Assembly: GCA_022573605.1 (NCBI GenBank)
Contig: JACZTQ010000001.1
Coordinates: 1 to 33,999 of the forward strand
Direction: 5' to 3'
Source: Pseudomonadota bacterium
GTDB taxonomy: Bacteria > Pseudomonadota > Alphaproteobacteria > Rhodobacterales > Rhodobacteraceae
Length of the DNA: 33,999 bases
A program made the position numbers and the translations under genes. The notes below the pieces were generated by a model. It was not told where the DNA came from. It searched no databases and worked only from the letters and a program-made list of their open reading frames with translations. Every line of letters starts with the position of its first letter. Position 1 is the stretch's first letter. Of this stretch, positions 14,616-33,999 are shown piece by piece.

Positions 14616-14699
14616 CACCGAAGGTTGCGCCAGAGCCGCCGGCGGAAAACAACCTCGACACGGCCACCGATTAGGACGACGCACAAAGAGAGGACGGCA

Positions 14700-16640: not shown

Positions 16641-19000
16641 ACATAAACCTCAAGCTCCAAGAGTCTAGAACGCTCGATCCGGGCATCGCCGCGCCGCTGG
16701 TGTCCTTTCCGTTTTTCCAGCTCGAATACGAAAAGTGCATCAAGTGCCTGCAATGCGTGCGCATCTGCGACGAGGTCCAGCATCGCAAGGTCTATACCAC
16801 CGACGACTCGGGCTACCCGGTGCTGGTCAGCGGCACCAACGATTTCCGCGACACCGATTGCAACAACTGCGGCCAGTGTGTCGGGGTCTGCCCGACCGGC
16901 GCCCTGGTCGATCTGACCGACACCGGCGTCCTGCCCAAGCACCTGCGCCAGAAGACCACCACGACCTGCGGTTATTGCGGGGTCGGCTGCGCCATCGAGC
17001 TGGAAACCGAGGCGGGCAAGGTGGTCGCCGTCAACCCCTCGCTGGTCTCGGACGCCAACATCGGCAATCTGTGCGTCAAGGGCCGCTTCGGCATGGACTT
17101 CATCCATCATCCCGACCGTCTGACGACGCCGCTGATGCGCCGCGGCGGCAAGGACAGCCCGCTGGAGCCGGCAAGCTGGGACGAGGCCATCGCCTTTGTC
17201 GCCCGGCGCTTCAACGAGGTCAAGGCCGAGCACGGCGCCTCGGCGCTGGCCGGCCTGACCTCGGCGCGGGCCACCAACGAGGACAATTTCGTCTTCCAGA
17301 AGTTGATCCGCTGCGCCTTCGGCACCAACAACATCGACCACTGCGCCCGGCTCTGCCACATGGCCTCCGCCGTGGCCCTGAAAATGGCGGTCGGCTCCAG
17401 CGCCCCGTCGGCGTCAAGTCCCGACGTGCGCATGGCGACGGCGTTCATCGTCTGCGGCTCGAACACCACCGTGACCCACCCGGTGATCTCGAGCCAGGTG
17501 TTCAGGGCCAAATACGAGAGCGGGGCGAAGCTTGTCGTGATCGACCCGCGCCGGATCGAGATGGTCGATCACGCCGATGTCTGGCTGCGGCCGAGGAACG
17601 GCACCAATGTCTCGGTGCTGAACGGCATTGCCCGGATCATCTGGAAGGAGGGGCTGGCCAACGACGCCTTCATCGAGGCGCGCACCGAAGGCTGGCAGAG
17701 CTACATCGAGAACCTCGAGAGATATACCCCCGAGTATGTCGAGGAGGTCTCCGGCGTGCCGGCGGGCCGGCTGCGCCAAGCCGCCCTGATGTACGGCAAG
17801 GCGGCGCGCGGCATGCTGTTGTGGGGCATGGGCATCACCCAGCACCTGACCGGCGTCGACGGCGCCTTGGCGATGGCCAATCTGTCGCTGCTCTCGGGCC
17901 ATGTCGGGCGTCCCGGCACCGGATTTATCCCGCTGCGCGGCCAGTCCAACGTGCAGGGCTGTTCCGACATGCAGGGCCAGCACAACAACCTGCCCGGCTA
18001 CCACGACATCAAGGACCCGGCGGATCGCGCCAAGTTCGAGAAAGCCTGGGGCGTGCCGATGCCGACGGACGAATACCTGACGGTGATCGAGATGGAGGAT
18101 GGCGCCGGCGAGGGCACCATCAAGGCGATGTTCATCATGGGCGAGAACCCGATGGGCTCGAGCCCCGACTTAAAGGAGGTCGAGCACGGCCTGAAGAAGC
18201 TCGAATTCCTCGTCGTGCAGGACCTGTTCCTGTCCGAGACGGCGGAGCTGGCCGACGTCGTCTTCCCGGCCGCCAGTTTTGCCGAGAAGGACGGCACCTT
18301 CACCAACACCGAGCGGCGCGTGCAAATGGTGCGCAAGGCGGTGGAGCCGCCCGGCGAGGCGCGGGCCGACTGGGAAATCATCTGCGACGTATCGACCGCC
18401 ATGGGCTACGAGATGAGCTATCCGGACGCCGCGTCGATCATGGAGGAGATCGCCTCCCTGGTGCCCTCCTACGCCGGCATCCGCCACGAGCGGCTCGGCG
18501 GCAGCGGCCTGCAATGGCCCTGCTTCGACACCAATCACCCCGGCACCCGTTTCCTTTATGCGGAGGACTTCCCGACCGCCTCGGGCCGGGGTCTGTTCCA
18601 TGCCGTCAACCAGGACGACGCGGGCGAGGACGCGGCCGACGATCTCTATCCGCTGAACCTCAACTCGGGCCGGTTGCTCGAGCACTATCACACCGGCACC
18701 ATGTCGCGGCGTTCGCGCGGGCTGCATCACATGCGGCCCGAGGGCGAGGTCGAGGTGCACCCCGAGGACGCGCGGCGCTACGGTCTGGAGAACGGCTGCA
18801 TGGGCCGCATCGTCACCAAGCGCGGCGCGATCGAGGTCAAGGTGTTTGTGACCGAAAAGACCCCGGAGGGGGCGATCTTCTACCCCTTCCACTTTGCCGA
18901 GGCGCCGGCCAACCGGCTGATCGCCGGCACCTTCGACAAGGCCTCGCAGACCCCGGCCTACAAGCGCACCGCCGCCAGGGTCGAGCGCATCGAGGCGTAG
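16637..19000 (+). CDS. fdhF: Formate dehydrogenase alpha subunit (Mo/W-bis-PGD, Cys-ligated)
   Basis: ATGA overlap start (16631 also possible). Two ferredoxin motifs (CIKCLQCVRIC, CNNCGQCVGVCP), CGYCGVGC...LCVKGRFG, active-site DHCARLCH, LRGQSNVQG, AEKDGTFTNTERRVQ, GRLLEHYHTGTM. Confidence 0.92.
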   Translation: MNINLKLQESRTLDPGIAAPLVSFPFFQLEYEKCIKCLQCVRICDEVQHRKVYTTDDSGYPVLVSGTNDFRDTDCNNCGQCVGVCPTGALVDLTDTGVLPKHLRQKTTTTCGYCGVGCAIELETEAGKVVAVNPSLVSDANIGNLCVKGRFGMDFIHHPDRLTTPLMRRGGKDSPLEPASWDEAIAFVARRFNEVKAEHGASALAGLTSARATNEDNFVFQKLIRCAFGTNNIDHCARLCHMASAVALKMAVGSSAPSASSPDVRMATAFIVCGSNTTVTHPVISSQVFRAKYESGAKLVVIDPRRIEMVDHADVWLRPRNGTNVSVLNGIARIIWKEGLANDAFIEARTEGWQSYIENLERYTPEYVEEVSGVPAGRLRQAALMYGKAARGMLLWGMGITQHLTGVDGALAMANLSLLSGHVGRPGTGFIPLRGQSNVQGCSDMQGQHNNLPGYHDIKDPADRAKFEKAWGVPMPTDEYLTVIEMEDGAGEGTIKAMFIMGENPMGSSPDLKEVEHGLKKLEFLVVQDLFLSETAELADVVFPAASFAEKDGTFTNTERRVQMVRKAVEPPGEARADWEIICDVSTAMGYEMSYPDAASIMEEIASLVPSYAGIRHERLGGSGLQWPCFDTNHPGTRFLYAEDFPTASGRGLFHAVNQDDAGEDAADDLYPLNLNSGRLLEHYHTGTMSRRSRGLHHMRPEGEVEVHPEDARRYGLENGCMGRIVTKRGAIEVKVFVTEKTPEGAIFYPFHFAEAPANRLIAGTFDKASQTPAYKRTAARVERIEA

Positions 19001-19085: not shown

Positions 19086-19739
19086 ATGCTTCCACACACT
19101 GTCGAGATTGGGAGTGCCGACGCAGTCGCAGATGCACTCTCTTTTGTACCTTGTAGAATCCCTAGGCCACGGACGAGTGACCTCGGACAACCATTGACCG
19201 AATGGTGGATGTTGCGGCGACTGCTACAACGCTATCCGGATGACCTCCCGTTCGATTTTCCGCTCGTTATTGAAAAGGGAGAGCGACCGGATTTTCTTAT
19301 TAAACACAATGACATGATCTATAATTTGGAGGCAACTGAAGCGACCAGCCATCTTGATCAACACGCTTGGGCAACGACTGACCGCACGAAGCCTCACTTG
19401 GTCAGCGAGTTTGGCGGTCGAGCCGAAGGCGGCATGGGAGGCAACCAACCGGAGCGTCTTGTTATCGCCGACGTCCTTCGAGCGATACGCCGCAAGCGGA
19501 AATTGTCACGAGACCTTTCACCTCAATGTCTGAATCTTTTAATTTATGTAAATTCGGAACCTGGATTTCTGCTTGATATTGAATATTTCGCCGCTACCGT
19601 AGAAGGTTATTGGCCATTGCTTGATGTATCGTGCAAAAATTATGGCGACATATTTACTATTCTCGGCAAGTCTTGTTGGCTTGATATTCGAGGCAACAAA
19701 GCGCGGATCATACGCGCCATCGTTTCATCGCCCAAGTGA
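19086..19739 (+). CDS. Hypothetical protein, PD-(D/E)XK nuclease-like, AT-rich
   Basis: ERPDFLI-x8-LEAT resembles a PD...E-x-K/T catalytic core. Composition differs from the flanks (e.g. 20 of 60 G+C at 19501-19560). Confidence 0.6.
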   Translation: MLPHTVEIGSADAVADALSFVPCRIPRPRTSDLGQPLTEWWMLRRLLQRYPDDLPFDFPLVIEKGERPDFLIKHNDMIYNLEATEATSHLDQHAWATTDRTKPHLVSEFGGRAEGGMGGNQPERLVIADVLRAIRRKRKLSRDLSPQCLNLLIYVNSEPGFLLDIEYFAATVEGYWPLLDVSCKNYGDIFTILGKSCWLDIRGNKARIIRAIVSSPK

Positions 19740-20154: not shown

Positions 20155-23100
20155 TCAGTGGCGCCCCAGCGGCAGCCCGCCCAGCGCCATCGTCCGGCCG
20201 CGCCGGGCGAAGGTGGTGACGGTCTCCTGACGCTGGACGCCGCCCTCGATGATGGTGATCAGCGGGATGCCGAGGCTGACCGACAACTCGGCGATAAAGC
20301 CGATCCCGGTCCCCGACATGTCCTCCAGCGTGTGGATGCCGATCCCCGGCCCCTCGCCGAGATCCAGCGAGCCGCCGCGCGCGATCGCCGAACCCGAGAA
20401 CCTGGTCTCGTCGCCGAACACCACGGTGAGCTGCACCGATGCGCCGACGCTGTAGATCCAGCCGACGGCGCCCGAGGCCGATCCGTAGTAGCCGATCTTG
20501 CGCCCCGGAGCGAACACCGCCCCGGCGCCGAAATAACCCCCGGCGCCGAGCGCTCCGCCGCCGGATACCCCGAGCCCGACGGTGATGTTGTGCCGGTCGC
20601 AGAGATCGAGGATGCCGCCGATGCCGCCGATGAAACTCAACCCCGGGACCGCTCCAAGGGCGGTGTCGAGGGCGAAGATCGCCAGCTCGACCTCCCAGCC
20701 CGAAAGCACCGTCGGCCCGGGCAGGTGGATCGTGGCGCCCCCGCCGAGCGGCCGGGCATAGCTCCGGGCCGCCGCCCCCGGCGGGGTCAGGAGCCGGTCG
20801 AGATAGGCTCGCGCCTGCTCCTCGGTGGCGCCGTTCGCCACCGCCCGGGCGATCGCCGCGTCACGGTCCCCCGCCGAGGCGGCGGGCGCCGCCGGCGCCC
20901 GGGTGTCGGCCGCGCCCGGCCTGGCCAGCGGCAGCCCTCCGATCACGCCGCGGTCGCGCGCCACAATCGGCAGCCCGCCGATGGTACGCGACGAGAGCCG
21001 GTGCCGGGGGCCGGAGGCCGCGGCCAGGCTGAACACATTGACCGAACTGATCCCGCCGCCCATCGCCCAGTTGATCTTGTCGGGCGTCAGCAGGCAGATG
21101 GTGTTTTCGATGTCGGTCGGTCCGCTGACCAGGATGCCCATCACCGGGATGCGCCCCGGCAGGCGGTCGCCGGACATGTTGTCGGTGAAGTCGATGAAGG
21201 CCGGCGACCCGGAGGTTCCGACCAGCGCGAAGATCATCAGGTTGGCGGTCTCCCCGGCCGGCCCGATCGAACGGATACGATCGATATCGAGATGCTGGAT
21301 GGTGGAGTCGACGCGGCCGCGGCCCGAGGCATAGCCGGTGATCGCAACCGGCGTATCGGGGACCGGAGAGAAGTTGATCAGATCGAAATGCAGCCCGTTC
21401 GGCGGGCCGTTGACGCCCGGGTCGGGCACCCGGATCACCGCCATGTCGAAGGTGCTGTTGTTCCCGCTCGAGGCGTATTGGGGATGGATCGTCCAGTCGC
21501 CCGAGGTGACCTTGAACGACTTGAGGTCACTCCCCGCCCCGCTGCCGTGTTGCCCGACGTGGACCATGATCTCGCTGGCGCCTACGGGGACATGGCCGGC
21601 GGTCAGGATCAGGTCGGGGGTAATGTAGAAGCCCGTACCATGCCCACCGAAGCTGCCATCCGCCAGGAAAGTGTCGAGCTTGCAGATCGCCGAGAACGGA
21701 AAATAGCCGGTCTCGGTAACACCGGCGGCGAAGCTTCCCCGCCGCACCAGCCGGTCGATGATCTTCTGAATCAGGTCGATCGGGCCGGTCGCGTTCAGCG
21801 GCATGATGCTGATATCGCCGGCATCCATCGCCCGAGCCAGGCCGAAGGCCGAGGCCGGGATCGCCCGCGCGCCCATGATCCAGTCGTTCTTCCGCGGCGT
21901 CAGCAGCACGCCGCGATTGAGGTTCGGGTTATCTTCTGGCGACTTGATATGGACGCCCATCACCCGCCACTGCTCGGTCGGGTCCGGCACCGACTGGGTG
22001 TCGGTGAAGCCGACGAAGACCGGCGACCCGGACGAGCCTTTCAGGGTTTGCAGATTGTATTCGACGATCTCGCCGCCGTTGGACAGCGCGCGCACATGGT
22101 CGATGTCCAGATGCTGGACGGTGCTGTCCACCGGCTGCACCGACCGTTTTCCCCAAGCGTAGCCGCAGACCGCGACCGGCGTCTCCGGTGACGGGCTGTA
22201 GTTGATCAACTGGAAATGCTGACCGTTCGGCGCCGCGTTCTTGGCCCGGATCACGCACAGGTCGAAATTGGGGTCCTCGCTGGCGAGATAGTTCGGATGC
22301 ACCTCCCAGTCCCCGGGCGACAGCGTGAAGTCAGGCGTCGAGGAGGGTCCGTTCTGGCCCGCCGTCACCGTGGCGCTCAGCGCCTGGCCGGTGACCGCGT
22401 CATAGAAGTTGTGGCCGCAGGTCAGGATCAGGTCGGGCGCGACATAGAAACCGGTGCCGTGGCCCGATCCGCTCGGGAACTGCATCTCCAGCCGGCAGAT
22501 CGCCGAGAACGGGAAGAACGAGGTGTCGCGAACCCCGGCCACGAAGCTCTGGCGGCGGCGGAAGTAATCGATGATCTCGTCGATCAGCTCCATCGGGTTG
22601 CGCGCCTCCAGCACCGGGCCGACATAGGCCTGCGCGCGGGCGATCGCCTGGCTCGAAGCCGCCGGCGGCTCCACCGTCGTGTCGACCTCGAACTCGGCCG
22701 GCGGGAACAGCGACAGCGGGGTCTGGCCGGCGGCCTCCGGGTCGTGCGAATAGACCAGCCGCTCGTCGACATAGACCTCGTAGGCGGGAAAGCCGTCATG
22801 GTTGCCGGTGACGGTCACGGCGGGGCTCTCCGGGGCGCCGTGGAAGCTGACGGTGAGGTCGCAATCGATGTTCGGCGACATCGTCACCAGCGGAATCCCG
22901 CCCGAGGCATAGAGCCTGACCGAGCCGAGGGAGTCGGCGACATCGGCGCTATCGGCGCTGTAGGAGGCCCAGAGATTATCCTCGGTCCGTTGCAGGCGCC
23001 CGGCGTCGAGCGGCTCGGCGCCCTCGTTGAGCAGCCACCACCAGTCCGGCTTGTTGGGCGCCTTGGTGACGTCGGAGGGCGCGTATTCATGGCTCTCGCC

Positions 23101-23391
23101 CCATTGCGGCGGCGTCAGGTAGCGGATGAACGCGCCATTCTCGTAAGGTTGCGCATCGGCGCCCTGGAGGATCGCTTTGACCTGCATCTCGGCGCGCGAG
23201 GTGCCGCCGGAATACTGGAACCCGCGCCCGTCGCCGCTGAAATAGCGATTGTCGACGAACGGCACCGGCATCTCGATGACCGGGGCCGGGATGAAGATGC
23301 GCAGTTTGACATCGACCTCGTGCTGGCCGGCGCTCATGGCGCCGGAGCGAACACGGTTGCTGGTGCTGGAATAGTCAAGCGGATAGGCCAT
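20155..23391 (-). CDS. Multi-domain protein: DUF3238-like domain, two trypsin-like (V8-type) serine protease domains, Gly-rich C-terminal domain
   Basis: N-domain has FSGDGRGF..GTSRA and GNHDGFPAYEVYV (DUF3238-like, from memory of the family). Protease 1: GTGF..LTCGH, FDLCVI, KGSSGSPV. Protease 2: GTGF..LTAGH, FDMAVI, VGTSGSP. SD GAGAGG; no signal peptide visible. Confidence 0.85.
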   Translation of the reverse strand: MAYPLDYSSTSNRVRSGAMSAGQHEVDVKLRIFIPAPVIEMPVPFVDNRYFSGDGRGFQYSGGTSRAEMQVKAILQGADAQPYENGAFIRYLTPPQWGESHEYAPSDVTKAPNKPDWWWLLNEGAEPLDAGRLQRTEDNLWASYSADSADVADSLGSVRLYASGGIPLVTMSPNIDCDLTVSFHGAPESPAVTVTGNHDGFPAYEVYVDERLVYSHDPEAAGQTPLSLFPPAEFEVDTTVEPPAASSQAIARAQAYVGPVLEARNPMELIDEIIDYFRRRQSFVAGVRDTSFFPFSAICRLEMQFPSGSGHGTGFYVAPDLILTCGHNFYDAVTGQALSATVTAGQNGPSSTPDFTLSPGDWEVHPNYLASEDPNFDLCVIRAKNAAPNGQHFQLINYSPSPETPVAVCGYAWGKRSVQPVDSTVQHLDIDHVRALSNGGEIVEYNLQTLKGSSGSPVFVGFTDTQSVPDPTEQWRVMGVHIKSPEDNPNLNRGVLLTPRKNDWIMGARAIPASAFGLARAMDAGDISIMPLNATGPIDLIQKIIDRLVRRGSFAAGVTETGYFPFSAICKLDTFLADGSFGGHGTGFYITPDLILTAGHVPVGASEIMVHVGQHGSGAGSDLKSFKVTSGDWTIHPQYASSGNNSTFDMAVIRVPDPGVNGPPNGLHFDLINFSPVPDTPVAITGYASGRGRVDSTIQHLDIDRIRSIGPAGETANLMIFALVGTSGSPAFIDFTDNMSGDRLPGRIPVMGILVSGPTDIENTICLLTPDKINWAMGGGISSVNVFSLAAASGPRHRLSSRTIGGLPIVARDRGVIGGLPLARPGAADTRAPAAPAASAGDRDAAIARAVANGATEEQARAYLDRLLTPPGAAARSYARPLGGGATIHLPGPTVLSGWEVELAIFALDTALGAVPGLSFIGGIGGILDLCDRHNITVGLGVSGGGALGAGGYFGAGAVFAPGRKIGYYGSASGAVGWIYSVGASVQLTVVFGDETRFSGSAIARGGSLDLGEGPGIGIHTLEDMSGTGIGFIAELSVSLGIPLITIIEGGVQRQETVTTFARRGRTMALGGLPLGRH

Positions 23392-23464: not shown

Positions 23465-24769
23465 TCATTGCGTCGGCCCTCCGGTGATCGGCTTGTTGGC
23501 GGCCGGGTTGGGGGTGTTGGCCTGGATCGAGCTGATCACCCCGGCATCGGCGAAACGCTCGAGCGGGAAGACATCGGACTTGAAGCGCAGATCGATCTCG
23601 CCGGTGAGGTTCGCCGAGACGTCGATTTCGCTCTCCGAATTCTTCTGCGAGCTCGAGACATAGGCGACCGTGGTCTTCACGCTGGCGCTGACCGGCGACA
23701 GGAACCAGCCATAGCTGGCTTGGGCCTCGGTCTTGGTGTCGAATTTCTGCGCCTCGCGGGCGCGGGTGACATCGGTGGTGTCGATCCGGAAGCCCATGCC
23801 GGCCTTGATCCGCCCGCGGGTGACGACGATGCGGTTGATGCCCATCAGCACCATCGAAGCCAGCGTCTGCTGCCTGCTCTGCGCCAGCTTGCGCCGGGCC
23901 GCGGGGACCAGCGTCTGCTCGATGGTCTCGGCATCGATCCCGGTCACCTCCTCGGAGAGATTGAGGTCGCGGCGGAAATTGGGCGGGTCCATGTCGTCGG
24001 CATTGGCGGTCGGGCGCAGTTGCGGGCCTTCGCTGGTGATCTCGAGCCGGATCACCTGGGGATAGGCGCTGACAAGCCAGTCGCGGGCGTTGTTGTCGGT
24101 GATGTTGTCCCGCATGAACTCGTCGACCGTCTTGGCGACATTGGAGAGCAGCTCGCCGAAGGCCTCCATCTGCTGGATCGAGGCATCGACGATGGCCTGG
24201 AAGGTGCCCTTGATCAGGTCGGCCACGAAGGTCGGGAAGGCGATCGCGTTCAGCGTATCCTCGGTGATCCGGGCGACATTCGCGGCCGCGACCGGAGTCA
24301 TGCCCTCCTCGCCGGCAAAGCCCTCGGCCTGGGCCCGCGCCAGTGGCGGCCGGCCCGCGGTGTGGGCCGGGGCGTGGGCCGGGGCGCTTTTCGGTTCGGG
24401 CGCGCGGCCCGGTATCGCGGCGCGCCGCCGGCGCGGTGGCGGGACCGGCTCCACCGTGCCCTCGATGATCCTGCGCTCGCGCACCACCGGGGTCTGGCCG
24501 AGGATTTTCGACTGGTGCCAGTCGTCGTGGACCAGCGTTGCCGCATAGGTCGAGATCTTCTCCAGATCGCGGCGCATGCTGTCGCGGGTGTCGCCGGAGA
24601 GCTGGTGGAAGGCCGGGCTCGACTCGAGCAGGGCGCGAACCTGGCCCGCCGCCAGGGTGCGGACCTCCGGCGAGGTTTCCATCTCGGCGCCCGGAGGCGT
24701 GGCGAACGGTCCGGGAAGCGGGTTTTCGGATAACCCCGCGATCGGGAGGCCATGGCTCGGCTGTGTCAT
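23465..24769 (-). CDS. Hypothetical protein, beta-hairpin family paralogue 3
   Basis: Shares AIAFPTFVADLIKGTFQAIVDASIQQME, MVLMGINRIVV and LTGEIDLRFKSD..PL with two other genes in the operon. Start is 1 nt after the upstream stop, with SD GGAGG. Confidence 0.88.
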   Translation of the reverse strand: MTQPSHGLPIAGLSENPLPGPFATPPGAEMETSPEVRTLAAGQVRALLESSPAFHQLSGDTRDSMRRDLEKISTYAATLVHDDWHQSKILGQTPVVRERRIIEGTVEPVPPPRRRRAAIPGRAPEPKSAPAHAPAHTAGRPPLARAQAEGFAGEEGMTPVAAANVARITEDTLNAIAFPTFVADLIKGTFQAIVDASIQQMEAFGELLSNVAKTVDEFMRDNITDNNARDWLVSAYPQVIRLEITSEGPQLRPTANADDMDPPNFRRDLNLSEEVTGIDAETIEQTLVPAARRKLAQSRQQTLASMVLMGINRIVVTRGRIKAGMGFRIDTTDVTRAREAQKFDTKTEAQASYGWFLSPVSASVKTTVAYVSSSQKNSESEIDVSANLTGEIDLRFKSDVFPLERFADAGVISSIQANTPNPAANKPITGGPTQ

Positions 24770-24770
24770 C

Positions 24771-26276
24771 TTATCCTCCCAGGTATCCGCCGGCGATGCC
24801 GCCGACCGCTTCGCCGATCATCTGGCCCTGCTCGCCGCCGACGGCGCCGCCGATGGCGCCGCCGGCGGTTGCGCCGGCGGCGCTGTAATCGCCGCTGGCG
24901 GCGTCCCGGATCACGCTGCCCGCGGTATCGCCGATGGTTTGCCCGGGGGCATCTTGCCGCGGGATCTCGGCGTCGCTCGGCGCCGGCAGCCGGCGCATCC
25001 GGGCATCGACCACCGATGCGGCGGACGGGCCGGTATCGAGGCGGGCGGCAGGCGGGGAGATGCCCCCGTGAAGCGGGGTATTGGCCTCCGGGTTCGGCGT
25101 GTTGGCGCGGATCCGTTCGATCGCCTCGGCCCGCGCCAGCCGGTTGAGCGGCATGTAGTCGGTCTCGAAGGTCACATCGACCTCGCCGGTCAGATCGGCC
25201 GAGACGTTCAGCGCGCTGTCGCTGTCCTGCCTGGTCGAGCGCACATAGGTGATCGAGGTCCGGGCCGAAAAAGCCACGTAGTAGAAGCCGGAGACCGACA
25301 ACTGGGTGCTGGTGTCGAAGGCGCTGGCGCTCTCCTGGTGCAGCCGGTCGCTGGCGTCGATATGAAACCCCATGGTGGCGCGGATGCGGCCGTGGCGCAC
25401 CACGATGCGCTGCAATCCCAGCATCACCATCGACGACAGCATCTGCAACCGCGACTGCGCCAGCTTGCGCCTTGCGGCCGGAACCAGCTGCTCCTCGATC
25501 ACCGTGTCGTCGAGGCTCGTGATCGGCTCGGGCAGGTTCAGGGCGCCCCGCAGGGCGGTCAGGTCGGCCGCGCTGGCCTCGTCTCCCGCCTCGGTGGTCT
25601 CCACCCGGGGTTCCTCGTCTTCGGTATTGACCACCATCAGATGGGGGTAGGACTGGGCCAGCCAGTCGCGCGCCTGGTTGTCGGTGATGTTCTCGGCCAT
25701 GTACTGGTCCACGGTCTTGGAGACGTCGCTGATCAGTTGCAGGAAGGTTTCCATCTGCTTGATGGTCGAGCCGACGATGGCGTCGAACGAGCCCTTGATC
25801 AGGTCGGCCACGAAGGTCGGGAAGGCGATGGCCCGCAGCGTGGACTCGGTGACCTCGCCGATCCGCGCCGTCGCGCCGCTGCGAAAGTCGCCCTGCGCCG
25901 TCAGCGCCCGCGCCGGCGGCTCGGGCATCCGGTAGATCTGCTCGGTCTTCACCAGCGGCCGCTGTCCCAGGCGCCGCGATTGCGCCCAGTCGTCGCGCAC
26001 CAACTCGGCGGCATAGGCGGAAATCCGCACCAGGCGTTCGCGCAAGGTGGTCTGATCGCCGGTTGAAAGCGCGTGGTAGGACGGTGTGCGCTCGAGCAGC
26101 GCCCGAACCTGCCCATCGACCAGGTTGAGCGTCTCCGGCCCGGGAATCACGCCGTCGGGCGATGGCGGCTTGTCGAAGGGCGCGGGCAGCGCCTCGGGCA
26201 AGCGCCCGCCGCCCGCCGGCGGAGGCGCCGGCTTGACGGCTGCAATCGGGGTGTGCCTGATGCTCATGGCGTTCAT
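24771..26276 (-). CDS. Hypothetical protein, beta-hairpin family paralogue 2, with C-terminal glycine zipper
   Basis: True start at ATG 26276 (ATGA overlap) or 26267, not 29141. AIAFPTFVADLIKGSFDAIV, MVMLGLQRIVV, LTGEVDVTFETDYMPL; ends GATAGGAIGGAVGG...IGEAVGGIAGGYLGG. Confidence 0.87.
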   Translation of the reverse strand: MNAMSIRHTPIAAVKPAPPPAGGGRLPEALPAPFDKPPSPDGVIPGPETLNLVDGQVRALLERTPSYHALSTGDQTTLRERLVRISAYAAELVRDDWAQSRRLGQRPLVKTEQIYRMPEPPARALTAQGDFRSGATARIGEVTESTLRAIAFPTFVADLIKGSFDAIVGSTIKQMETFLQLISDVSKTVDQYMAENITDNQARDWLAQSYPHLMVVNTEDEEPRVETTEAGDEASAADLTALRGALNLPEPITSLDDTVIEEQLVPAARRKLAQSRLQMLSSMVMLGLQRIVVRHGRIRATMGFHIDASDRLHQESASAFDTSTQLSVSGFYYVAFSARTSITYVRSTRQDSDSALNVSADLTGEVDVTFETDYMPLNRLARAEAIERIRANTPNPEANTPLHGGISPPAARLDTGPSAASVVDARMRRLPAPSDAEIPRQDAPGQTIGDTAGSVIRDAASGDYSAAGATAGGAIGGAVGGEQGQMIGEAVGGIAGGYLGG

Positions 26277-27277
26277 GCCGGAGCCCCGCCGAAACCGCCG
26301 GCGGCGAAGCCGCGGGCGCGCGCGCCAGATCCGCCCACGGGCGCGTTGCCGTGGCCGGACCGGCGCTGCGGCTCGGCGCCATACCCGCCGCCCGCCGATT
26401 GCCGGGGCGCGTCCCCCACGGCGCGCAGCCAGGCATCGGCCCAGGCCACGGCCTCGGGAGAGGCGAGCACCGCCGCCGCCGCCGCGTCCGATTGCAGCGC
26501 CTCCAGCCGGCCGGCGGACCAGCTCAGCAACCGCATCCCGTTCTGGGCCCGGGCCACCCGCGTCCCCAGGTCCGGGGTGTCGGCGCCGAGCACGGCGCGG
26601 ATCACGTCCCAGGCCGTCCGGCCGCGAAACAGCGTGGTCAGGCCGCGATGATCGAGCGCGGCGATGGCGAGCCGCAACTGCGCCGACATCTTCTCGGCGA
26701 CGATCAGGGTCGAGCCCAGAAGCCGCCCGCCCAGATTGGCGATCAGCGTGCGCGCGGCCATGGTGAGCCGGGCGCCGGCGCCGAACGATGGCCGGCCGAA
26801 GCGCGCCTCGTCGTCGAGCCGCCCGATGGCGCCGCAGAACATCGCGAAACGGGGCTCGAACTCGTGGTTCGCAATGGTCTGCCCGAGGCCGGGATCGGTG
26901 AAGCCGAGACCGAAGACGCGGACGAAGATCTGGTTGCGCAGGTCGCGGTCGATCCAGTCGCCGCGCATCGCCGTCGCCAGTTGCTCGATCAGTCTCGCGG
27001 CTTCGCGGTCGGAGATGTCGAGGGTGAAACGCGCGCTCGCGAGCTCCTCGGCCACCGAGAGCAGAAAGGTTCCCTCGAGCTCGGCCATGAAGTAGAGCGA
27101 GGCCAGGATCCGCATCGCCTCGGGGGTCACCGCAGCGCCCCCGGCGCCGCCGTAGGCCGGCAGGTCGATGCGGTAGGGGTCGCCCATCAAGGCCAGCGCG
27201 AAGGCCCGCGAGCGGCCGCACGAGCCGATCAGCGCATCGACATGCGTCAGCGAGTTGGAGAGAAGCGCCGAGGCCAT
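26273..27277 (-). CDS. Hypothetical helical protein, paralogue of the C-terminal part of 29640-31772
   Basis: Fits the operon (12-nt gap upstream, ATGA overlap downstream). Motif order LYFMAELE / R..IFVRVFG / NHEF / NL..R / AEKMSAQL / AWDVI parallels the 710-aa protein. Confidence 0.82.
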   Translation of the reverse strand: MASALLSNSLTHVDALIGSCGRSRAFALALMGDPYRIDLPAYGGAGGAAVTPEAMRILASLYFMAELEGTFLLSVAEELASARFTLDISDREAARLIEQLATAMRGDWIDRDLRNQIFVRVFGLGFTDPGLGQTIANHEFEPRFAMFCGAIGRLDDEARFGRPSFGAGARLTMAARTLIANLGGRLLGSTLIVAEKMSAQLRLAIAALDHRGLTTLFRGRTAWDVIRAVLGADTPDLGTRVARAQNGMRLLSWSAGRLEALQSDAAAAAVLASPEAVAWADAWLRAVGDAPRQSAGGGYGAEPQRRSGHGNAPVGGSGARARGFAAGGFGGAPA

Positions 27278-27289
27278 TCGCGCGGCCCC

Positions 27290-28513
27290 CTAGGTTCCCG
27301 GCGGCGGCGGCAGGGCGGGCGGCGGCGGCGGCGCCAGCGGCTGCACCTGGTTTAGCTGCGCCGGGGTCGGCTGCCGCGCCTGCTGCACCAGGACCGTCTC
27401 CGAGGTGCCGAGCATGTCCATCATCATCTCCAGCGGGAAGGTCTCGGACTTGAAGCGCAGATCGACATTGCCCTTCAGCGTCGCCTTGAGCGCCGACTTG
27501 CTCTCGCTGTCGTCGGTCTGGACGGTCTCCACGTTCAGCCTGGTGCGCTCCGCCTCGCGCTTCCGGGTGAAAATCCACCAGCCTTCCTTCTTCCTCCTCG
27601 CTGTCCGGTGGGTGAACGAGGACTTGATCGCGTTGGCGCGCCGCACCTGGTCGGAGGCGCTGATCTTGAACACCACCGAGGCCTGGATCTTGCCGTCGGT
27701 GACGACGATCCGGTTGATGCCCATCAGCACCATGGTGGCCAGCAGCTTCTGGCGGTCCATCGCCATCGACTTGCGCATCGCCGGCACGACCTCCTGCTTC
27801 ACCACCTCCTCGTCGGCGACATCGAGGTCGAAGGGCAGGCCCAGATTGCCCAGGAAGCTGGACATCTGGCCCTCGTCGGCATCGGCTCTCGGGACCACCG
27901 CCCCGGCGTCGAGGTCGGCTTCGAAGAGGTCGGGGTGCCCCGCGGCGAGCTGGTCCATCGCCTGCTCTTCCGAGACGTTGTCCTTCATGTATTCGTCGAC
28001 CGACTTGGCGACATTGCCGACCATCGCGGTATAGGCCTCCATCTGCTGGATCGAGGTCTCGACGATGGCGTTGAACACGCCCTCGATCAGCCCGCCGACG
28101 AAGCCGGGAAAATCGGTGGTGTTGATGAAGTCGGAGAACTGGTCGCCGGCGGCGGCGGTGGCGACGTTGGCATAGGCGTCGCCGGCGGTGTCGAAGTCTG
28201 TCTGCCTGCCGGTCGGCGCTCTTGGCGGCCTGATCGGCGTGCCCGCCAGCGCCCGTGCCGTCGGCAGCGCGCCGGTGGCGCCCTCGATCGCCGCGGTGAG
28301 CGGCAGCCCCGCGGTCTCGCCGCCGGCGTCGGCGATGAAGCGCGCGACCTTCACGGTGTCGCGCGCGGTCTCGAGCTGCCGCTCCTTGCTCAGGGCGTTG
28401 AACGCCGGCGAGCGGGTCAGGATCGACTTGACCCTGGCGCGCACCAGGTCGAGCGTTGCCGGGTCGTCGTCGAACGGGCCGTCCTGGGTTGACGGGTGGT
28501 CTTGGGGTTCCAT
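27290..28513 (-). CDS. Hypothetical protein, beta-hairpin family paralogue 1
   Basis: DFPGFVGGLIEGVFNAIVETSIQQMEAY, MVLMGINRIVVTDGKI, LKGNVDLRFKSETFPL; SD GAGAGG; Pro-rich tail. Confidence 0.88.
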   Translation of the reverse strand: MEPQDHPSTQDGPFDDDPATLDLVRARVKSILTRSPAFNALSKERQLETARDTVKVARFIADAGGETAGLPLTAAIEGATGALPTARALAGTPIRPPRAPTGRQTDFDTAGDAYANVATAAAGDQFSDFINTTDFPGFVGGLIEGVFNAIVETSIQQMEAYTAMVGNVAKSVDEYMKDNVSEEQAMDQLAAGHPDLFEADLDAGAVVPRADADEGQMSSFLGNLGLPFDLDVADEEVVKQEVVPAMRKSMAMDRQKLLATMVLMGINRIVVTDGKIQASVVFKISASDQVRRANAIKSSFTHRTARRKKEGWWIFTRKREAERTRLNVETVQTDDSESKSALKATLKGNVDLRFKSETFPLEMMMDMLGTSETVLVQQARQPTPAQLNQVQPLAPPPPPALPPPPGT

Positions 28514-28528: not shown

Positions 28529-29584
28529 CTAGGCTGCCGCGACCGGCGTTGGCGCCTCGGCCGGCGCGAGCGCGGCGCGGCTTGCTTCGGACTCGAACTG
28601 CACCGGGCGCAGGTACAGCGCCAGGCGCGCCGGCATGTCGCGCCGCACCCGCACCGACAGCACGGTGACCGCGCCGGGCCCGTGGAACCCGTCGGGGGTC
28701 ATTGCCGTCATCCAGCGGTCGAGCGCGGCGAGGTTTTGCGGCCGCTCGGTCATCGGCAGCCGCAGCAGCGGCAGCAACTGCTCGGGCACGTCGGGCAGGG
28801 CGTCGATATTGACGTCGAGGCGCAGCTCGGGACCGTTGCGGCTGTTCAGAACCGTCAGCACCGAGGTTCCGGCGGGCAGCACGAAGCGGGCCCCGAGCAC
28901 GAACGAGACCAGCATCCGCAGGCCCCCGTGGCGCTCGCCGAGGCCGAGCGCCCGCATCAGCGGCGCCAGGTCGTCGAGCCGGGTATCGGCATCGATCGCG
29001 AACGACATCTGCTGCCCGCCCGAGGCGCGCCCGCAGCGGATCGTGGTATAGAGCGGCCGCAGCCCCGGCAGCTGCTCGACCGCGATGCGGGCCAGCGCCA
29101 TCAACGGCTCCGGCAGGGTGTCGGCGATATGCGGCCCCCATTCATAGCTGGCGGCGGCTTCGTTGAGACCGTTTTCGTCGAAGCCCAGGGCATACATCGC
29201 GCCGTAGCCCTTGGCTTGGGCCCAGTCGCCCCGCATGGCCTCGGTGCGGCCGTCGAGCCAGTGCCGGGCATCGCGCCCGAACTGCTCGCCGACCAGCTGG
29301 CGCATCGCCTGGGTGGAGATCTCGCGCTGATCGTCCCGGCCGACGCCGCGTCCGCTCGGCCGGACCTGGAAGGAGAGCGATTTCGGAGCCGTTTCGTAGA
29401 AGCTGGGTTCGAACGGACGCTCCCGGAGCTGATCTCCATGAGCGTCGTCCACGGTCCAGTCGAGCGACTTGTCGAGCGCGCTCGAGACACTGTGGAGCTG
29501 CGCCGGGTTGGGCGTCATGAGTCGGTTTGACGCCATGCCCAGCAGCGACTTGGCCGCGTCCGCGGCGCGTGTGCGATATGCCAT
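28529..29584 (-). CDS. Hypothetical protein, possible ABBA (PT-barrel) prenyltransferase-like fold
   Basis: SD AGGAGG. Five apparent beta-hairpins separated by helical segments, ending RLALYLRP. The CDS is well supported; the fold is inference. Confidence 0.75.
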   Translation of the reverse strand: MAYRTRAADAAKSLLGMASNRLMTPNPAQLHSVSSALDKSLDWTVDDAHGDQLRERPFEPSFYETAPKSLSFQVRPSGRGVGRDDQREISTQAMRQLVGEQFGRDARHWLDGRTEAMRGDWAQAKGYGAMYALGFDENGLNEAAASYEWGPHIADTLPEPLMALARIAVEQLPGLRPLYTTIRCGRASGGQQMSFAIDADTRLDDLAPLMRALGLGERHGGLRMLVSFVLGARFVLPAGTSVLTVLNSRNGPELRLDVNIDALPDVPEQLLPLLRLPMTERPQNLAALDRWMTAMTPDGFHGPGAVTVLSVRVRRDMPARLALYLRPVQFESEASRAALAPAEAPTPVAAA

Positions 29585-29639: not shown

Positions 29640-31772
29640 CTAGAACCCCGGCAGCATCGAGCGCAACTGGTCGAGGCTGGGCGCCTGTCCCCGACCGACC
29701 ATCTGCTTGATCTGTTCGATGCCGGAGAGGTCGATGCCACCGATTCCCCCGGCGCCCCCGCCGGCCATGCCGCCGGCCGCGGGCAGGCTCGGCGCGGCGA
29801 TGGTCTCGACCGGCTGGCTGTACTCGTCGACCATCGAATCCCGCACCCCGGAGACGGCCCGGAAATGCTGCGACGCCACCATCAGCGCCTGGGTGTCGTC
29901 GTAGCTCAGATCGCCTTCGTTATCCGCCGTCTCGGAGAACAGCGCCCGCCCTCTCGCGCTGTCGGACCAGACCGAATGGTTGTCGGCGGCGATGGTCATG
30001 ATGCGCTGGGTCTCGACCGCAAGCGTGCGGTGCAGCACCACATTGACGGTTTCGCCGAATTCGCGCTGGGCGACGCGCTCGACCACCTGCCACGGCGTGG
30101 TGACGCCGAAGGCGGTGCGGATCGACGGCATCGCCAGGATCTTGAGGATCTTCTTGATCTGGTTCGACATCCGTTCCGCCGTGAACGCGGTGCCGGCCCA
30201 GCCGCGCAGGCTGGCATTGGCCACAAAATCGCGCATCGACTTGCGCACGAACTCCGAATTCGTCGACTTGAACCGCTTGCCGCGCGCGGTGGCGTCGAGC
30301 ACGTTGAGGATGCTCCTCTCGCGCTCGTATTCGGCGATCGACGAGACCGCCCGCATCAGCAGGGTGTTGAACTCGGAATTCGGCTGCACGTCGAAACTGA
30401 TCTGCCCGCCGGGCGCGCCCAACACCCGGCCGTAGACCGAATAGCGGGCGGATTCGTCGAGGAAATCCTCCATCGACCAGTACAGCGTGTCGAGTTCGCG
30501 CGCCGTGCCGTCGGAGGCCGAAATCGGCAGCAGGCCGGCCATGAACAACTCGAGGATGCGGTTGGACACCCGGTGCATCATCATCTGTTCGAGCTGATAG
30601 GAGACGTAGATGGTCGAGACCGCGCGGATATTGTCGGGCTCGATCTCGTCGTTGTAGCCGTAGGGATCGGTGAGCGGCGGCAAGGCCAGGTCGGCCACCC
30701 CGCCGCCGGCGCCGCCGCCGCCCAGGGCGACGTCGCTGACATGCTGGGTGTATTTGGAGCGGGACAGCGAATCCAGCAGCTTGGTTTCGCCCAGGTGCTG
30801 GTCGTAGGCGTCGACCATCGCCCGGCCGGTGGCGGCGAAGGATTGCAGGAAGATCGGCACGCCGCGCAGGACCGGGCTCTCCGACAGGGCCTTGAAGACC
30901 TTGGCGTAGATCGAAATCCGCTGGGTCTCGCGGGCCGTCGGCGCGAACATGTTGACGCCGTGCTTGTCGATCTCGACTTCGTTCGATTCCTTGGCGCTGC
31001 CCGACAGCTCGGTCACGATCCGCTGGGCGGCGGCGAAGAACCGGGCGTCGCGGGGGTTGTAGTTCCCGTCCTGGAGCAGCAGTCCGGCGGTCGAGATCAC
31101 CCAGATCCTGGCATCCGCCTCGCTCGGGTCGTGCCCCAGAAGGGCGACGGCCTGAATCACCGCATCGATGAAAACGGCCTGACCCTCTTCGGTCTTGAGG
31201 CTGTCTGGCACCGGGGCCGTGTTGATGGCCGCGGCTTCGAGGATATCGATCCTCAGTTTCGTCGCGTCCGACATATCATGGTTCTCCTTCTCTTCCTCTT
31301 CCGGGTCTGACGCCGGGGGCTCGTCGCCGGGAAACTCCGTGTTCCCGAGAACGAATTGGTTGAAGTTAATCATAAGTCCCGCGTCGCCCGGGATCGCCGC
31401 GCTCATGGCGATGCGCAGGATCCGGGCGACCCGGTGATGGTTGTGGGCATGCGCGGTGACGTGAGTGCGTATGGCCTTGACCGCATTCGCCTTCTGCTCG
31501 CCGTCGAGACCGTCGATCGCCAGCTTCGCCGACAGCCAGCGCCGCGCGATCCGGCCGGCGATCGCCTCCATGAGCTCGCGAAGCGCATCGAGGTCGTCGA
31601 GCACTTCCTCCACCTTCTGGCCGATGTCGACGACCTTCTCGACGTCTTTCGGCGTCAGCACCTCGCCGGCGACCTCAAGCAGGCGCTCGATCTCGGCCCC
31701 GGTGGGTTCGCGGCCAAGGACATGGGCGGTCAGCGCCGCCGCGGCTATCGGAGAAAAATCGCTGAGGCTCAT
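29640..31772 (-). CDS. Large hypothetical helical protein (710 aa), possible internal start at 31274
   Basis: ATGA overlap with the subtilase stop. The C-terminal half aligns by eye with 26273-27277. Confidence 0.85.
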   Translation of the reverse strand: MSLSDFSPIAAAALTAHVLGREPTGAEIERLLEVAGEVLTPKDVEKVVDIGQKVEEVLDDLDALRELMEAIAGRIARRWLSAKLAIDGLDGEQKANAVKAIRTHVTAHAHNHHRVARILRIAMSAAIPGDAGLMINFNQFVLGNTEFPGDEPPASDPEEEEKENHDMSDATKLRIDILEAAAINTAPVPDSLKTEEGQAVFIDAVIQAVALLGHDPSEADARIWVISTAGLLLQDGNYNPRDARFFAAAQRIVTELSGSAKESNEVEIDKHGVNMFAPTARETQRISIYAKVFKALSESPVLRGVPIFLQSFAATGRAMVDAYDQHLGETKLLDSLSRSKYTQHVSDVALGGGGAGGGVADLALPPLTDPYGYNDEIEPDNIRAVSTIYVSYQLEQMMMHRVSNRILELFMAGLLPISASDGTARELDTLYWSMEDFLDESARYSVYGRVLGAPGGQISFDVQPNSEFNTLLMRAVSSIAEYERERSILNVLDATARGKRFKSTNSEFVRKSMRDFVANASLRGWAGTAFTAERMSNQIKKILKILAMPSIRTAFGVTTPWQVVERVAQREFGETVNVVLHRTLAVETQRIMTIAADNHSVWSDSARGRALFSETADNEGDLSYDDTQALMVASQHFRAVSGVRDSMVDEYSQPVETIAAPSLPAAGGMAGGGAGGIGGIDLSGIEQIKQMVGRGQAPSLDQLRSMLPGF

Positions 31773-32645
31773 GGCGTGGTCTCCCTTTCGTGGAAGTCGG
31801 TTTGATCGAGCAGGCTGAGCGCGGCCGGGATGTCGAGCATGCCGCTGCCGGCGCCGTGGTCATGCCCCCGGGCCGCGCCCTCGGCGGAAGCGGTCAGGAG
31901 CTGTTTCGCCTCGGCGCCGGTCAGGTCGTGGCCGCGCGACAGCGCGCGCGCGGCGAGCAAGGCGGCGGCGCCGGCGACGAACGGCGCGGCGTGGCTGGTG
32001 CCGGTGCTCTCGCGGTAGCCGTCCAGCCCGGCCGAGAAGACGTCCTCGCCGGGGGCGCAGAGCGCGATATGGGGGCCGCTGGTGGAGAATTCCGAGACCC
32101 GCCCGTCCAGGCTCATCGAGCCGACCGCGATGGTTTGCGGCAGGGCTGCGGGGTAGTAGGTCTCCTCCAGCCCCGAATTGCCCATCGCCGCGACCGGGAT
32201 CACCCGGTGCGCCTCGGCATAGCGCAGAACGTCGGAATGCGGGCCGGGGGCGTCCGGGTCGAGGTCGGCGCCGGCGGTCCCGAAGCTCATGTTGATGACC
32301 TTGGCGCCGAGATCGACGGCGATCTTGATCGCGGCGTCGATGTCGGACAGTCCGCCGACACCGACCAGTTCGCCCGATCCCATCAGCGCCGCCGCCAGGG
32401 CCCGGACCGGAATGATCGGCGAGGCGCCGGCGATGCCCCTGGGCATCCCCAGCCCGGCCGCGCCGATGAAACTGGCGCCGCGCCCGCATTCCGGTCACCC
32501 GCGCGAGGATCGCCCGGTCGACCCTGCCGCCGCCGTCGATCGTGCCGGCGGCCCGCGCGGCGCCCGCCAGCACGTCGAGATGGGCCGGCGCCCGGGTTTC
32601 CACCCCGGGCCGCAACTTGACGCAGATCCGGCCGCCGCGGTTCAT
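31769..32645 (-). pseudogene. S8 subtilisin-like serine peptidase, internally deleted and frameshifted
   Basis: Start at ATG 32645 (SD GGAGG, ATGA overlap) gives ~60 aa of propeptide-like sequence, MNRGGRICVKLRPG...RRQFH. The frame changes near 32467 into IGAAGLGMPRGIAG...VINMSFG, AAMGNSG, YYPAA, APGEDV, GTSHAAPFVAG. The catalytic Asp and His segments are absent. Confidence 0.82.
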
Positions 32646-33580
32646 CGCCCGTCCTCCCCGGCCGGATCGACATCGAGCCGGTAGGCCTGTCTGGCGCCGT
32701 CGGGCAGTTCGATCTCCAGGGCGCCGGCGGCGACGTTCTCCGGCAGGCCGAAGGAGACGCTCCGGGCGGTCGCGGCAAGGATCGGCAACTCGCGCCCGTC
32801 GAGGCGCGCCCGTGGCGCGATGCCCGCATCGAGCAGATTGTCGCCCCGCAGGCGGATCTGCCTGGCGCCCTTGCCGACCCGGATCACGGGCTTGCCGGGC
32901 CGCGCGCGGGGCGCCTTTCCGGCCGGCGCCAAGGGGGCCTCCGGCGGGCGCTTGATGCCTTGGCGGATGCGATCGGCCAGGCCGCCCGGCGCCAGGCCCG
33001 GGTCGGGGCGCTCGACCCCGGGGTCGAGCCACGGCCGCGGCGGATCGGCGGCCGGTTGCGGCACGGGTTGCGGATCACCGGGAGGATCGCCGGTCACCTC
33101 GTCGATACGGGGGCGCGAGAGGTCGAGCGCACTGCGGATGCGGTCCAGATCGACGCCGGAATAGCGCGACATGGTGTCCTCGCCGGCCCGGCGCTGAAGC
33201 TTGCGGAGCTGGGCGGCGTTGCGCACCCCGAGCTTTTCAAGCTGCCGGCGCTCGTCCGCCGCCAGCCCGACCTCCGCCAGGGTCGGCGCCTGCGTCATCT
33301 CGAGGGAAACCGTGTTTTCCTCGATCATCGGCCGCGTGATGGTGGTGAAACCGATCTTCACCTTGCTTGCTCCAGTTTCGTTCGGACCGCTGGGGCGCAT
33401 CGTCACCCTTCCTTCGCTGTCCATCTCCACGAACACTTGCAGGTCGACCGAGAAATCCTTGAGCGCGAAGGTCAGGGGCCGGTTCACGGCCTTCAGCCTG
33501 AGTGCGTCCTGGGTTTTGTCGAGCTGTGCCGTGATCGCCTCCAAGAACTCCTCGATCGGGTAGCTGCCGCCCCGCGCCAT
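32642..33580 (-). CDS. Hypothetical protein: Trypco2-like N-terminal domain, Pro-rich linker, IPT/TIG-like C-terminal domain
   Basis: N-terminal amphipathic helix PIEEFLEAITAQLDKTQDAL followed by strands FALKDFSVDLQVFV and SKVKIGF. C-terminal IRLRGDNL...ARLDGRELPIL..TARSVSFGLP...GALEI. Domain names are inference. Confidence 0.78.
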   Translation of the reverse strand: MARGGSYPIEEFLEAITAQLDKTQDALRLKAVNRPLTFALKDFSVDLQVFVEMDSEGRVTMRPSGPNETGASKVKIGFTTITRPMIEENTVSLEMTQAPTLAEVGLAADERRQLEKLGVRNAAQLRKLQRRAGEDTMSRYSGVDLDRIRSALDLSRPRIDEVTGDPPGDPQPVPQPAADPPRPWLDPGVERPDPGLAPGGLADRIRQGIKRPPEAPLAPAGKAPRARPGKPVIRVGKGARQIRLRGDNLLDAGIAPRARLDGRELPILAATARSVSFGLPENVAAGALEIELPDGARQAYRLDVDPAGEDGR

Positions 33581-33584
33581 GGGA

Positions 33585-33872
33585 TTACTCCGATGGGTTG
33601 GGGGCCGGGTCGGCCGGGTCTTCGGTTGGTCCGCCGGTCGGTGTCTGCTCTCGCTTGACGCGGATCCGGGTGCGATGCACGACCGGCTCCACCCCCGAGC
33701 GGTAGGCCGAATAGGGCGGGTGGGCGACGAACGCCGGTCCGTCGCGCCCGTGCACCATGCGCACCATCATCGGCAGCTCGATTTCCGCCTCGTCGATGCC
33801 GAGGTAGGGCTGCTCGGGGGTCACCCCCTCGATCAGCGCGATCAGGGTGTCGGACAGCATCATGCGGGTCAT
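33585..33872 (-). CDS. Small hypothetical protein (helix plus beta strands)
   Basis: SD GGGAGG, ATGA overlap upstream, 4-nt gap downstream. LSDTLIALIEGV..LGIDEAEIELPMMV..VVHRTRIRV. Confidence 0.75.
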   Translation of the reverse strand: MTRMMLSDTLIALIEGVTPEQPYLGIDEAEIELPMMVRMVHGRDGPAFVAHPPYSAYRSGVEPVVHRTRIRVKREQTPTGGPTEDPADPAPNPSE

Positions 33873-33999
33873 CGCCGGCCTCCCCCGCGCGGCCGGCGCG
33901 GATCATAGGGTTGCGTGATCAGGGACTGTTGAACCGTGGGCGCGGGCGGCGGCGCCAGGTCCTCGCCGGGCTCTGGCGGCGGCGGCGGTGGCGGCGCCA
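33869..33999 (-). CDS. C-terminal end of an upstream operon gene (5'-partial), proline-rich
   Basis: Open frame APPPPPPPEPGEDLAPPPAPTVQQSLITQPYDPRRPRGGGRR* whose TGA overlaps the next ATG (ATGA at 33869-33872). Confidence 0.65.
   Translation of the reverse strand, partial: APPPPPPPEPGEDLAPPPAPTVQQSLITQPYDPRRPRGGGRR

Follow-up and report, generated by a model that had tools for sequence, protein, structure and literature searches.

We analysed a stretch of 33,999 nucleotides (nt) from an alphaproteobacterium of the family Rhodobacteraceae (assembly GCA_022573605.1, contig JACZTQ010000001.1, forward-strand positions 1 to 33,999, making up the entire contig), referred to hereafter as the window. 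Its minus strand carries three paralogous genes, B1, B2 and B3, whose products each contain a long hairpin, within an operon that is real, conserved and apparently undescribed. An earlier note on this DNA, made from the letters alone, drew attention to the three paralogues but omitted the larger system around them: a subtilase, a prenyltransferase-fold protein, a Pepco-like subunit and hydrolase cargo. The inspected record and every named homologue are annotated as hypothetical, and no description of the operon was found in a literature search that did not extend to most subscription papers and supplements. The hairpin paralogues and their hairpin modules (aa, amino acids) are placed as follows.

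23465..24769, minus strand: B3, hairpin paralogue of 434 aa, with an N-terminal helical domain at about residues 18-90, a linker, and a core from residue 165
23582-23842, minus strand: B3 hairpin module, residues 310-396
24771..26276, minus strand: B2, hairpin paralogue of 501 aa with a Gly-rich C-tail
25167-25418, minus strand: B2 hairpin module, residues 287-370
27290..28513, minus strand: B1, hairpin paralogue of 407 aa with a charged, variable tip
27452-27721, minus strand: B1 hairpin module, residues 265-354

All three open reading frames (ORFs) are of coding type, with a GC content at third codon positions (GC3) of 0.89-0.93; the start codon of B2 sits within a longer spurious ORF, and a gene not related to the B paralogues, X, separates B1 from B2. 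The paralogy proposed in the note is borne out by tblastn identities of 44-45% for B2-B3 (E~1e-100), 34% for B1-B3 and 30% for B1-B2 (30-48% across the paralogues), together with common motifs. The motifs V[RK]..L...P.[FY]..LS and FP.FV..LI.G.F.AIV...I.QME, the aromatic tips GWWIF, GFYYVAF and YGWFL and the closing L.G.[VI]D..F.....PL were all found as quoted; a further motif given as M..G is present, but with a true spacing of M...G. The closer relationship of B2 to B3 than of either to B1 is likewise seen in the identities and in a tree of 159 rows, which joins B2 and B3 (94 rows, support 97) apart from B1 (55 rows, support 100). A further 10 rows (support 99) are B0, a fourth paralogue present in relatives, often along with a fifth, and the split between B2 and B3 is less resolved. 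None of the B cores matched a Pfam or NCBIfam family. Two longer B relatives were seen, a single 983-aa ORF uniting B2 and B3 in Pendulispora albinea (P0121), which is either a natural fusion or has lost a stop codon, and a frameshifted-looking X-B2 ORF; as singletons they were not counted as support.

AlphaFold models of B3 at full length (91 sequences, predicted local distance difference test score (pLDDT) 73, predicted template-modelling score (pTM) 0.48) and of its core (132 sequences, pLDDT 77, pTM 0.63) place, in order, a helical domain at the N-terminus, a disordered linker, a helix of ~50 residues, then a small insert, another long helix and finally the long hairpin, the strands of which are confident at residues 312-332 and 381-400. 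Both models give a long two-stranded hairpin and not the compact globule that the note had named as the outcome refuting its proposal. The helical block that it saw at the N-terminus exists, but as a separate domain, which a Pro/Ala linker (pLDDT <50 at 118-157) connects to the core. Its description of ~60 aa of Ser/Thr-rich hairpin in all three proteins held for B2 and B3 in composition and alternation (29-31% Ser/Thr in the modules compared to 11% in the remaining core), but not for B1, which is 38% charged, nor in length, as the modules span 84-90 aa.

Among relatives we delimited 165 hairpins, 94 of the B2/B3 type, 55 of the B1 type and 16 of the B0 type. Those of the B2/B3 type are 84-95 aa long (median 85) with period-2 alternation; 88 of the 94 have an aromatic tip (two or more aromatics), and the strands beside the tip show a hydrophobic face and a Tyr that is invariant (94/94, this Tyr being part of the classifying motif). 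B1-type hairpins span 85-123 aa and are more charged. Stems of beta-barrels typically look like an unpaired amphipathic hairpin of fixed length, and we infer that the B proteins form such a stem and may assemble into mixed, pore-forming rings.

The codons of the B3 hairpin (~295-412) are also overlain by a stretch of abundant RNA: two metatranscriptomes from different studies (X19 and X20) each hold a contig of 340-352 nt within 23534-23885, at depths of 254 and 161, and the other operon contigs listed have depths of about 2-8. Both RNA contigs stop at 23885, while DNA contigs continue across. Neither a sigma-70 promoter nor an Rfam family match was found in this region, and its folding is not unusual (z about -0.8). 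This weakly hints at an abundant transcript, either internal or antisense.

The B proteins could not be assigned to the aerolysin, MACPF or gasdermin families, with which the note proposed to compare them. Fold searches with Foldseek against PDB (B3 full model and core) and BFVD (full model), and VIA-wide with both models, gave nothing at E<=0.001 or Z>=8. Foldseek rows of aerolysin-type and binary toxins were weak (E>=0.19, TM score <=0.08 by query, root-mean-square deviation >20 A; nothing at Z>=8). In proteins of the MACPF/CDC type a bent sheet of four strands is accompanied by two clusters of helices, which turn into hairpins; the B core model has one hairpin, and one weak row was seen (E 0.095). 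Gasdermins, with a core fold and two hairpins per subunit, were absent among the rows of the Foldseek and VIA searches. Rows for SecB and phage collar proteins were taken as generic hairpin matches. A complex prediction with three B3 cores (ipSAE 0.00 and 0.00) is usable neither way, as its controls did not fold. As no fold search links B to a known pore family, the B proteins may act like a binary pore toxin or like Pepco without belonging to either. In toxins of the anthrax PA and leukocidin types an N-terminal domain is removed by proteolysis, a barrel is built from long hairpins, the enzyme cargo is separate and subunits are paralogous. The analogy with these binary A-B and bi-component beta-pore toxins concerns the way of working only: the B proteins have no sequence or fold match to them and no signal peptides were seen, the maturing protease is here encoded in the operon, and the cargo is mostly aimed at bacterial walls.

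A distant kinship with DUF2589, also suggested in the note, stood in part. A DUF2589-A profile, built from 31 sequences of which many are near-identical viral ones, scored at least 10 bits on 66 of 174 B cores, compared to 1/174 reversed and 0 locally shuffled sequences; in searches with the corresponding hidden Markov model (HMM), B cores outranked 14,894 decoys (best E 2e-4), and the matches ran in order through N-helix and hairpin. On the other side, PF11655 itself (23-bit cut-off) matched 0/132 B cores at E<=1, and HHalign of B against DUF2589 was not significant, giving 14% and 5% while the reversed controls scored just as high or higher, and 77% vs 37% only once the insert was removed. 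The B-DUF2589 value of 0.80 from Atlas features is a lead only, and the genome itself has no PF11655 match. DUF2589 proteins (mentioned in PMC3949148) are 160-250 aa long, occur in viral contigs and are uncharacterised themselves. They share with B the tandem paralogues and an N-helix LI.G...A..DA followed by a Ser/Thr-rich hairpin with a G-W/F tip, whereas B carries in addition a ~90-aa insert and an N-terminal domain. Judged from these profiles, the B proteins are probably distant kin of DUF2589 and not members, the kinship being weak to moderate.

The remaining operon genes in the window are the following.

20155..23391, minus strand: cargo polyprotein of 1078 aa, with a weak DUF3238 match, two trypsin domains with H/D/S motifs and a Gly-rich C-terminal domain
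26273..27277, minus strand: X, 334 aa, predicted helical, no family assigned, homologue of the C-terminal part of U2
28529..29584, minus strand: U1, 351 aa, ABBA prenyltransferase fold by structure comparison
29640..31772, minus strand: U2, 710 aa, fold not assigned, paralogue of X
31769..32645, minus strand: S8 subtilase, broken at about 32466-32469
32642..33580, minus strand: U4, 312 aa, with weak similarity of the N-terminal domain to Trypco2/Pepco
33585..33872, minus strand: U5, conserved 95-aa protein, no family
33869..33997, minus strand: C-terminal tail, rich in Pro and probably that of B0, truncated where the contig ends and assigned from position and tail composition only

No family could be assigned to B, X, U1, U2, U4 or U5 from scans of Pfam, NCBIfam, PHROGs and PADLOC. 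X matches the C-terminal part of U2 by HHalign (100%, E 4.5e-87). A PDB sequence search with B, X/U2 and U1 profiles found nothing credible, and two rows, for adenylosuccinate lyase and protein A constructs, with X/U2 (E~3e-4) were treated as helical noise.

The operon comprises about twelve genes, and its full order is activator, A, B0, U5, U4, subtilase, U2, U1, B1, X, B2, B3 and variable cargo. A GTDB scan retained 54 loci, in Alpha-, Beta- and Gammaproteobacteria, Myxococcota, Acidobacteriota, Actinomycetota, Planctomycetota and Chloroflexota. The order S8-U2-U1-B1(-B1')-X-B2-B3 is exact in 40 of them (two of which lie on one contig); three have split ORFs and 11 are truncated without contradiction. 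Each of five genomes searched whole has 4-5 B paralogues, all in one cluster. A divergent second subtype ends at B2 and keeps S8-U2-U1-B-B in 30/36 loci (35 metagenome loci of at least 7 kb, among 80, and one plasmid). The B family comprises 1,856 clusters at 50% identity (E<=0.001) and extends over at least six phyla; within the host's own family the operon is rare (2/300 other genomes). The closest named homologues are in Roseovarius and Ruegeria, and the window DNA recurs in marine and marine-sediment metagenomes. Since cultured carriers exist (Ruegeria, Celeribacter, Kribbella, Actinoplanes and Ramlibacter), the system is open to direct testing.

The upstream part, as seen in relatives, consists of a BTAD activator, protein A, B0, U5 and U4; the activator was present at two of three loci tested, the third being without one there, and protein A is lysozyme-like, with a weak GH46 match in one of four. 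A BTAD-type activator and the start of an A protein, cut by the contig end, lie elsewhere in the same genome (contig C178, 2830-5435), and this is probably the front of the window's operon. Five betaproteobacterial operons (L022, L028, L031, L032 and L223) have a small DUF3467-type gene and a sigma-54 activator replacing the BTAD regulator. The last of them (NZ_CP091309.1), a complete operon of the second subtype on an 880-kb plasmid of Burkholderia pyrrocinia, was the sole match among 72,556 plasmids; its front holds the sigma-54 activator, DUF3467 and a multi-domain amidase, and its core genes are all annotated as hypothetical save the subtilase.

U1 reaches a TM score of 0.77 over 327 aa to Trp_DMAT clusters, a comparison of predicted with predicted model (Atlas pTM 0.87). 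Polar residues (R, E, D, Q) are conserved across 74 U1 sequences; HHalign of U1 with DMATS/NphB-type enzymes was uninformative, as this profile test is insensitive and its positive control failed. No small-molecule pathway genes occur in the conserved set, and on this ground U1 is predicted to prenylate a protein substrate. In PMC13290415, F-family ABBA enzymes are described as prenylating peptide residues, and cyanobactin clusters as combining PatA/PatG subtilases with such enzymes and short recurring motifs. Subtilase and ABBA fold are found together here too, but the probable substrates are large proteins, and neither a heterocyclase nor a short precursor gene was seen in the conserved gene set.

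This likeness bears on an alternative in which the products form no membrane pore but a soluble structure (tube, cage or surface layer) in which enzymes are stored or displayed, or carry out cyanobactin-like peptide maturation. A weak TIGR03895 match of the window subtilase (90 bits against a cut-off of 421, for a partial gene), DUF5838 clusters among the Atlas matches, phage collar and tube proteins among the weak fold rows, and B0 and B1 tips that are not membrane-like all lean towards it. The missing heterocyclase and precursor, and the hydrophobic face and invariant Tyr beside the B2/B3 tips, lean away, and we consider such an assembly unlikely.

In this assembly the window subtilase lacks ~160 residues including the catalytic Asp and His. 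Contigs of a run from the same population (X2) pass 32466-32469 on both sides with other sequence, the loose end encoding the His motif, and the join therefore probably reflects either a deletion in the strain or a collapse in the assembly. Among 45 subtilase ORFs of relatives, 31 combine the D, H and S motifs (regular-expression search), most misses being in the His pattern. The following short motifs are candidate sites for this protease.

24329..24340, minus strand: ARAQ in the B3 linker, residues 144-147, predicted subtilase site
25902-25913 and 28247-28258, minus strand: the equivalents in B2 and B1
21826..21837, minus strand: ARAM between the two trypsin domains of the cargo
22630-22641 and 20746-20757, minus strand: further equivalents in the cargo

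The pattern A-[RQ]-[AS]-[LMQ] is present in 48 of 88 B2/B3 linkers (9.1 when shuffled, max 16), mostly 27-36 residues before the core, and in 11 of 21 linkers of the held-out subtype (2.4 shuffled, max 8). It also stands right after the amidase domain in 11/20 cargo proteins (1.4 shuffled, max 5). In a first count on the cargo, [AST]Q[SAG][LM] occurred 31 times compared to 6.9 in shuffled sequence (max 18), with a flank control of 4 vs 3.6; as the motif was first spotted by eye in cargo, this count is not independent. Subtilisins prefer a small residue at P2 and a hydrophobic one at P1, consistent with the motif. These patterns suggest that the subtilase cleaves at A-[RQ]-[AS]-[LMQ]; a docking signal is a possible alternative.

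Other repeated motifs were noticed in relatives. A proteins (L057:11819-13807 and others) carry acidic Tyr-rich repeats, [ARQ]AY[DEG], with six copies in one protein; we take these to resemble cyanobactin protease recognition sites, and they are possible sites of cleavage or prenylation. A DPWAP-like C-terminal motif recurs in B0 and U4 of five loci (L039, L040, L052, L057 and L058) and is absent from the window proteins.

U4, which has no Pfam match, is followed directly by the S8 subtilase at every locus covering both. Its N-terminus matches Trypco2 by HHalign (60%, E 8.6e-5; reversed control 0.2%), and the top 12 rows of a Trypco2 HMM search were all U4 (best E 0.037). The B proteins themselves gave <=0.4% by HHalign against Trypco profiles of 4-6 sequences. 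As set out in PMC12642450, Pepco proteins (Trypco1/Trypco2) are protease-activated beta-barrels of 9-10 subunits, toxic to the producing cell. They resemble the present system in their helix-plus-hairpin subunits encoded beside a protease gene and in site-specific cleavage, which here is predicted (PMC12642450). Pepco is, however, ~117 aa long, homo-oligomeric, cut at the C-terminus and tied to phage sensors (PMC12642450), compared to 407-501 aa, 4-5 classes, an N-terminal domain and enzyme cargo here.

The adjoining protease and Pepco-like domain raise the idea of anti-phage abortive infection, with phage-triggered proteolysis opening a lethal pore as in Pepco or bacterial gasdermins, and the patchy distribution within the family would suit it. 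Yet the operon has a transcriptional activator in place of any sensor domain, PADLOC gave no match for the core genes, and its matches to 14 of 113 flank proteins are scattered generic domains (ABC, sigma-54 AAA, cyclase, WYL) that do not form a defence island. Such a role would also leave the polymorphic wall hydrolases unexplained, and we regard it as very improbable.

Those hydrolases are the commonest content of the terminal cargo gene. Of 34 cargo proteins scanned in relatives, 29 have domains of peptidoglycan-hydrolase type (21 Amidase_3, four more M15/VanY and four NlpC/P60 or C92); one has a trypsin domain only, one a PETase-like domain only, and three have no match. The cargo varies among strains too, with dense substitutions at 21621-21704 in run X1 and an X2 contig that omits 851 nt. 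By a crude hydropathy test none of the window's ten proteins has an evident signal peptide or transmembrane helix, except for a hydrophobic stretch near the cargo C-terminus, and Pfam and NCBIfam scans found no secretion apparatus genes among them. Extracellular contractile injection systems, tailocins and type VI secretion systems are likewise encoded by large ordered operons that end in variable cargo and occur in bacteria of soil and sediment; homologues of their tube, sheath, baseplate or spike proteins were not found among the window operon proteins by Pfam, NCBIfam and PHROGs.

Another precedent is type 10 secretion (T10SS), or holin-endolysin release, for which PMC10847048 describes a signal-less wall hydrolase, large cytoplasmic cargo and a dedicated activator, as here. 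The signal-less peptidoglycan hydrolase characteristic of it is present in those 29 of 34 relatives, but not in the window cargo. A holin was not detected: no family match was found, and 19-residue hydropathy stays at <=1.7 in the nine non-cargo window proteins. Unlike T10SS, the window operon offers a beta-hairpin family and no holin-like helical membrane protein.

In a holin-like scheme the matured barrel would open the inner membrane of the producer itself, so that hydrolases reach its own wall and a subpopulation lyses, spilling a mix of enzymes, while no particle acts on other cells. Signal-less peptidoglycan hydrolases at one or both operon ends, the absence of an encoded secretion apparatus, the toxicity of Pepco to its own producer (PMC12642450) and lysis-based release in T10SS (PMC10847048) favour this. 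Against it, self-lysis would require far less than 4-5 classes of barrel protein, a pair of scaffold paralogues and a protein of prenyltransferase fold, the cargo combines wall enzymes of many types with proteases and lipase-like domains, and no B relatives were found in IMG/VR or GenBank phages. We think self-lysis rather unlikely as the sole function.

We tentatively prefer a different reading, possible though short of probable: that the operon encodes a protease-matured, multi-ring beta-barrel particle, released by lysis, which delivers signal-less hydrolases into other bacteria. A released particle is favoured over a purely holin-like role because of the many subunit classes and the diversity of cargo. 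A dedicated activator of the BTAD or sigma-54 type would turn the operon on, and the subtilase would cut at A-[RQ]-[AS]-[LMQ], freeing the B cores from their prodomains and releasing individual enzymes from the cargo. The B0, B1, B2 and B3 cores and the Pepco-like U4 would then set their hairpins side by side in mixed or stacked barrels, with the aromatic tips of B2 and B3 spanning a membrane and U2 and X serving as helical scaffolds; U1 may prenylate tip aromatics or new N-termini, providing a lipid anchor. Lysis of the producer would be brought about by those amidase and lysozyme-like domains that stay constant, and the variable enzymes would be delivered by the particle.

Several observations weigh against the particle. 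The present data do not separate delivery to other cells from a breach of the producer's membrane. The window cargo has two trypsin domains in place of a peptidoglycan hydrolase domain, and no conserved immunity gene was seen downstream of the cargo. Motif enrichment in the front A proteins was not significant (12 vs 6.3, max 15), and within Pfam domains the motif is not clearly depleted (6 vs 8.8 expected). The middle and tip of the hairpin have pLDDT <50 in both AlphaFold models, B1 tips are charged and of variable length, and B0-type hairpins, of 81 aa, have an aromatic tip in only 3/16. Finally, there was no significant structural match to pore-forming or tube proteins (best Foldseek E 0.13 and 0.014; VIA Z 5.5 and 5.2).

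Taking the particle and the holin-like scheme jointly, it is fairly probable that a barrel matured by a protease carries enzymes across an envelope, as the fixed order, the paralogue classes, the hairpin pattern, the protease, the ABBA fold, the motif and the signal-less cargo all fit it. Doubtful, by comparison, is the most far-reaching version, a new non-contractile delivery machine with a hetero-oligomeric barrel of 4-5 paralogues, matured by its own subtilase, lipidated by an ABBA prenyltransferase that works on folded proteins, and charged with enzymes that are excised from polymorphic polyproteins, as an elaborate branch of a DUF2589/Pepco-like barrel superfamily. Should the preferred model hold, signal-less enzymes would have a new route across bacterial envelopes, and large proteins might be prenylated natively in bacteria by an ABBA enzyme. 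It would also suggest a function for DUF2589-like proteins that can be tested, and supply a set of modular wall hydrolases whose cleavage follows a predictable code.

An orphan ORF of low GC (19086-19739, plus strand, GC3 0.47) without a family match separates formate-dehydrogenase-like genes from the operon end. The window at 812-19000 carries housekeeping genes, namely peptide and amino-acid ABC transporters, a thiamine pyrophosphate (TPP) enzyme and a molybdopterin oxidoreductase with a flavin/FeS subunit.

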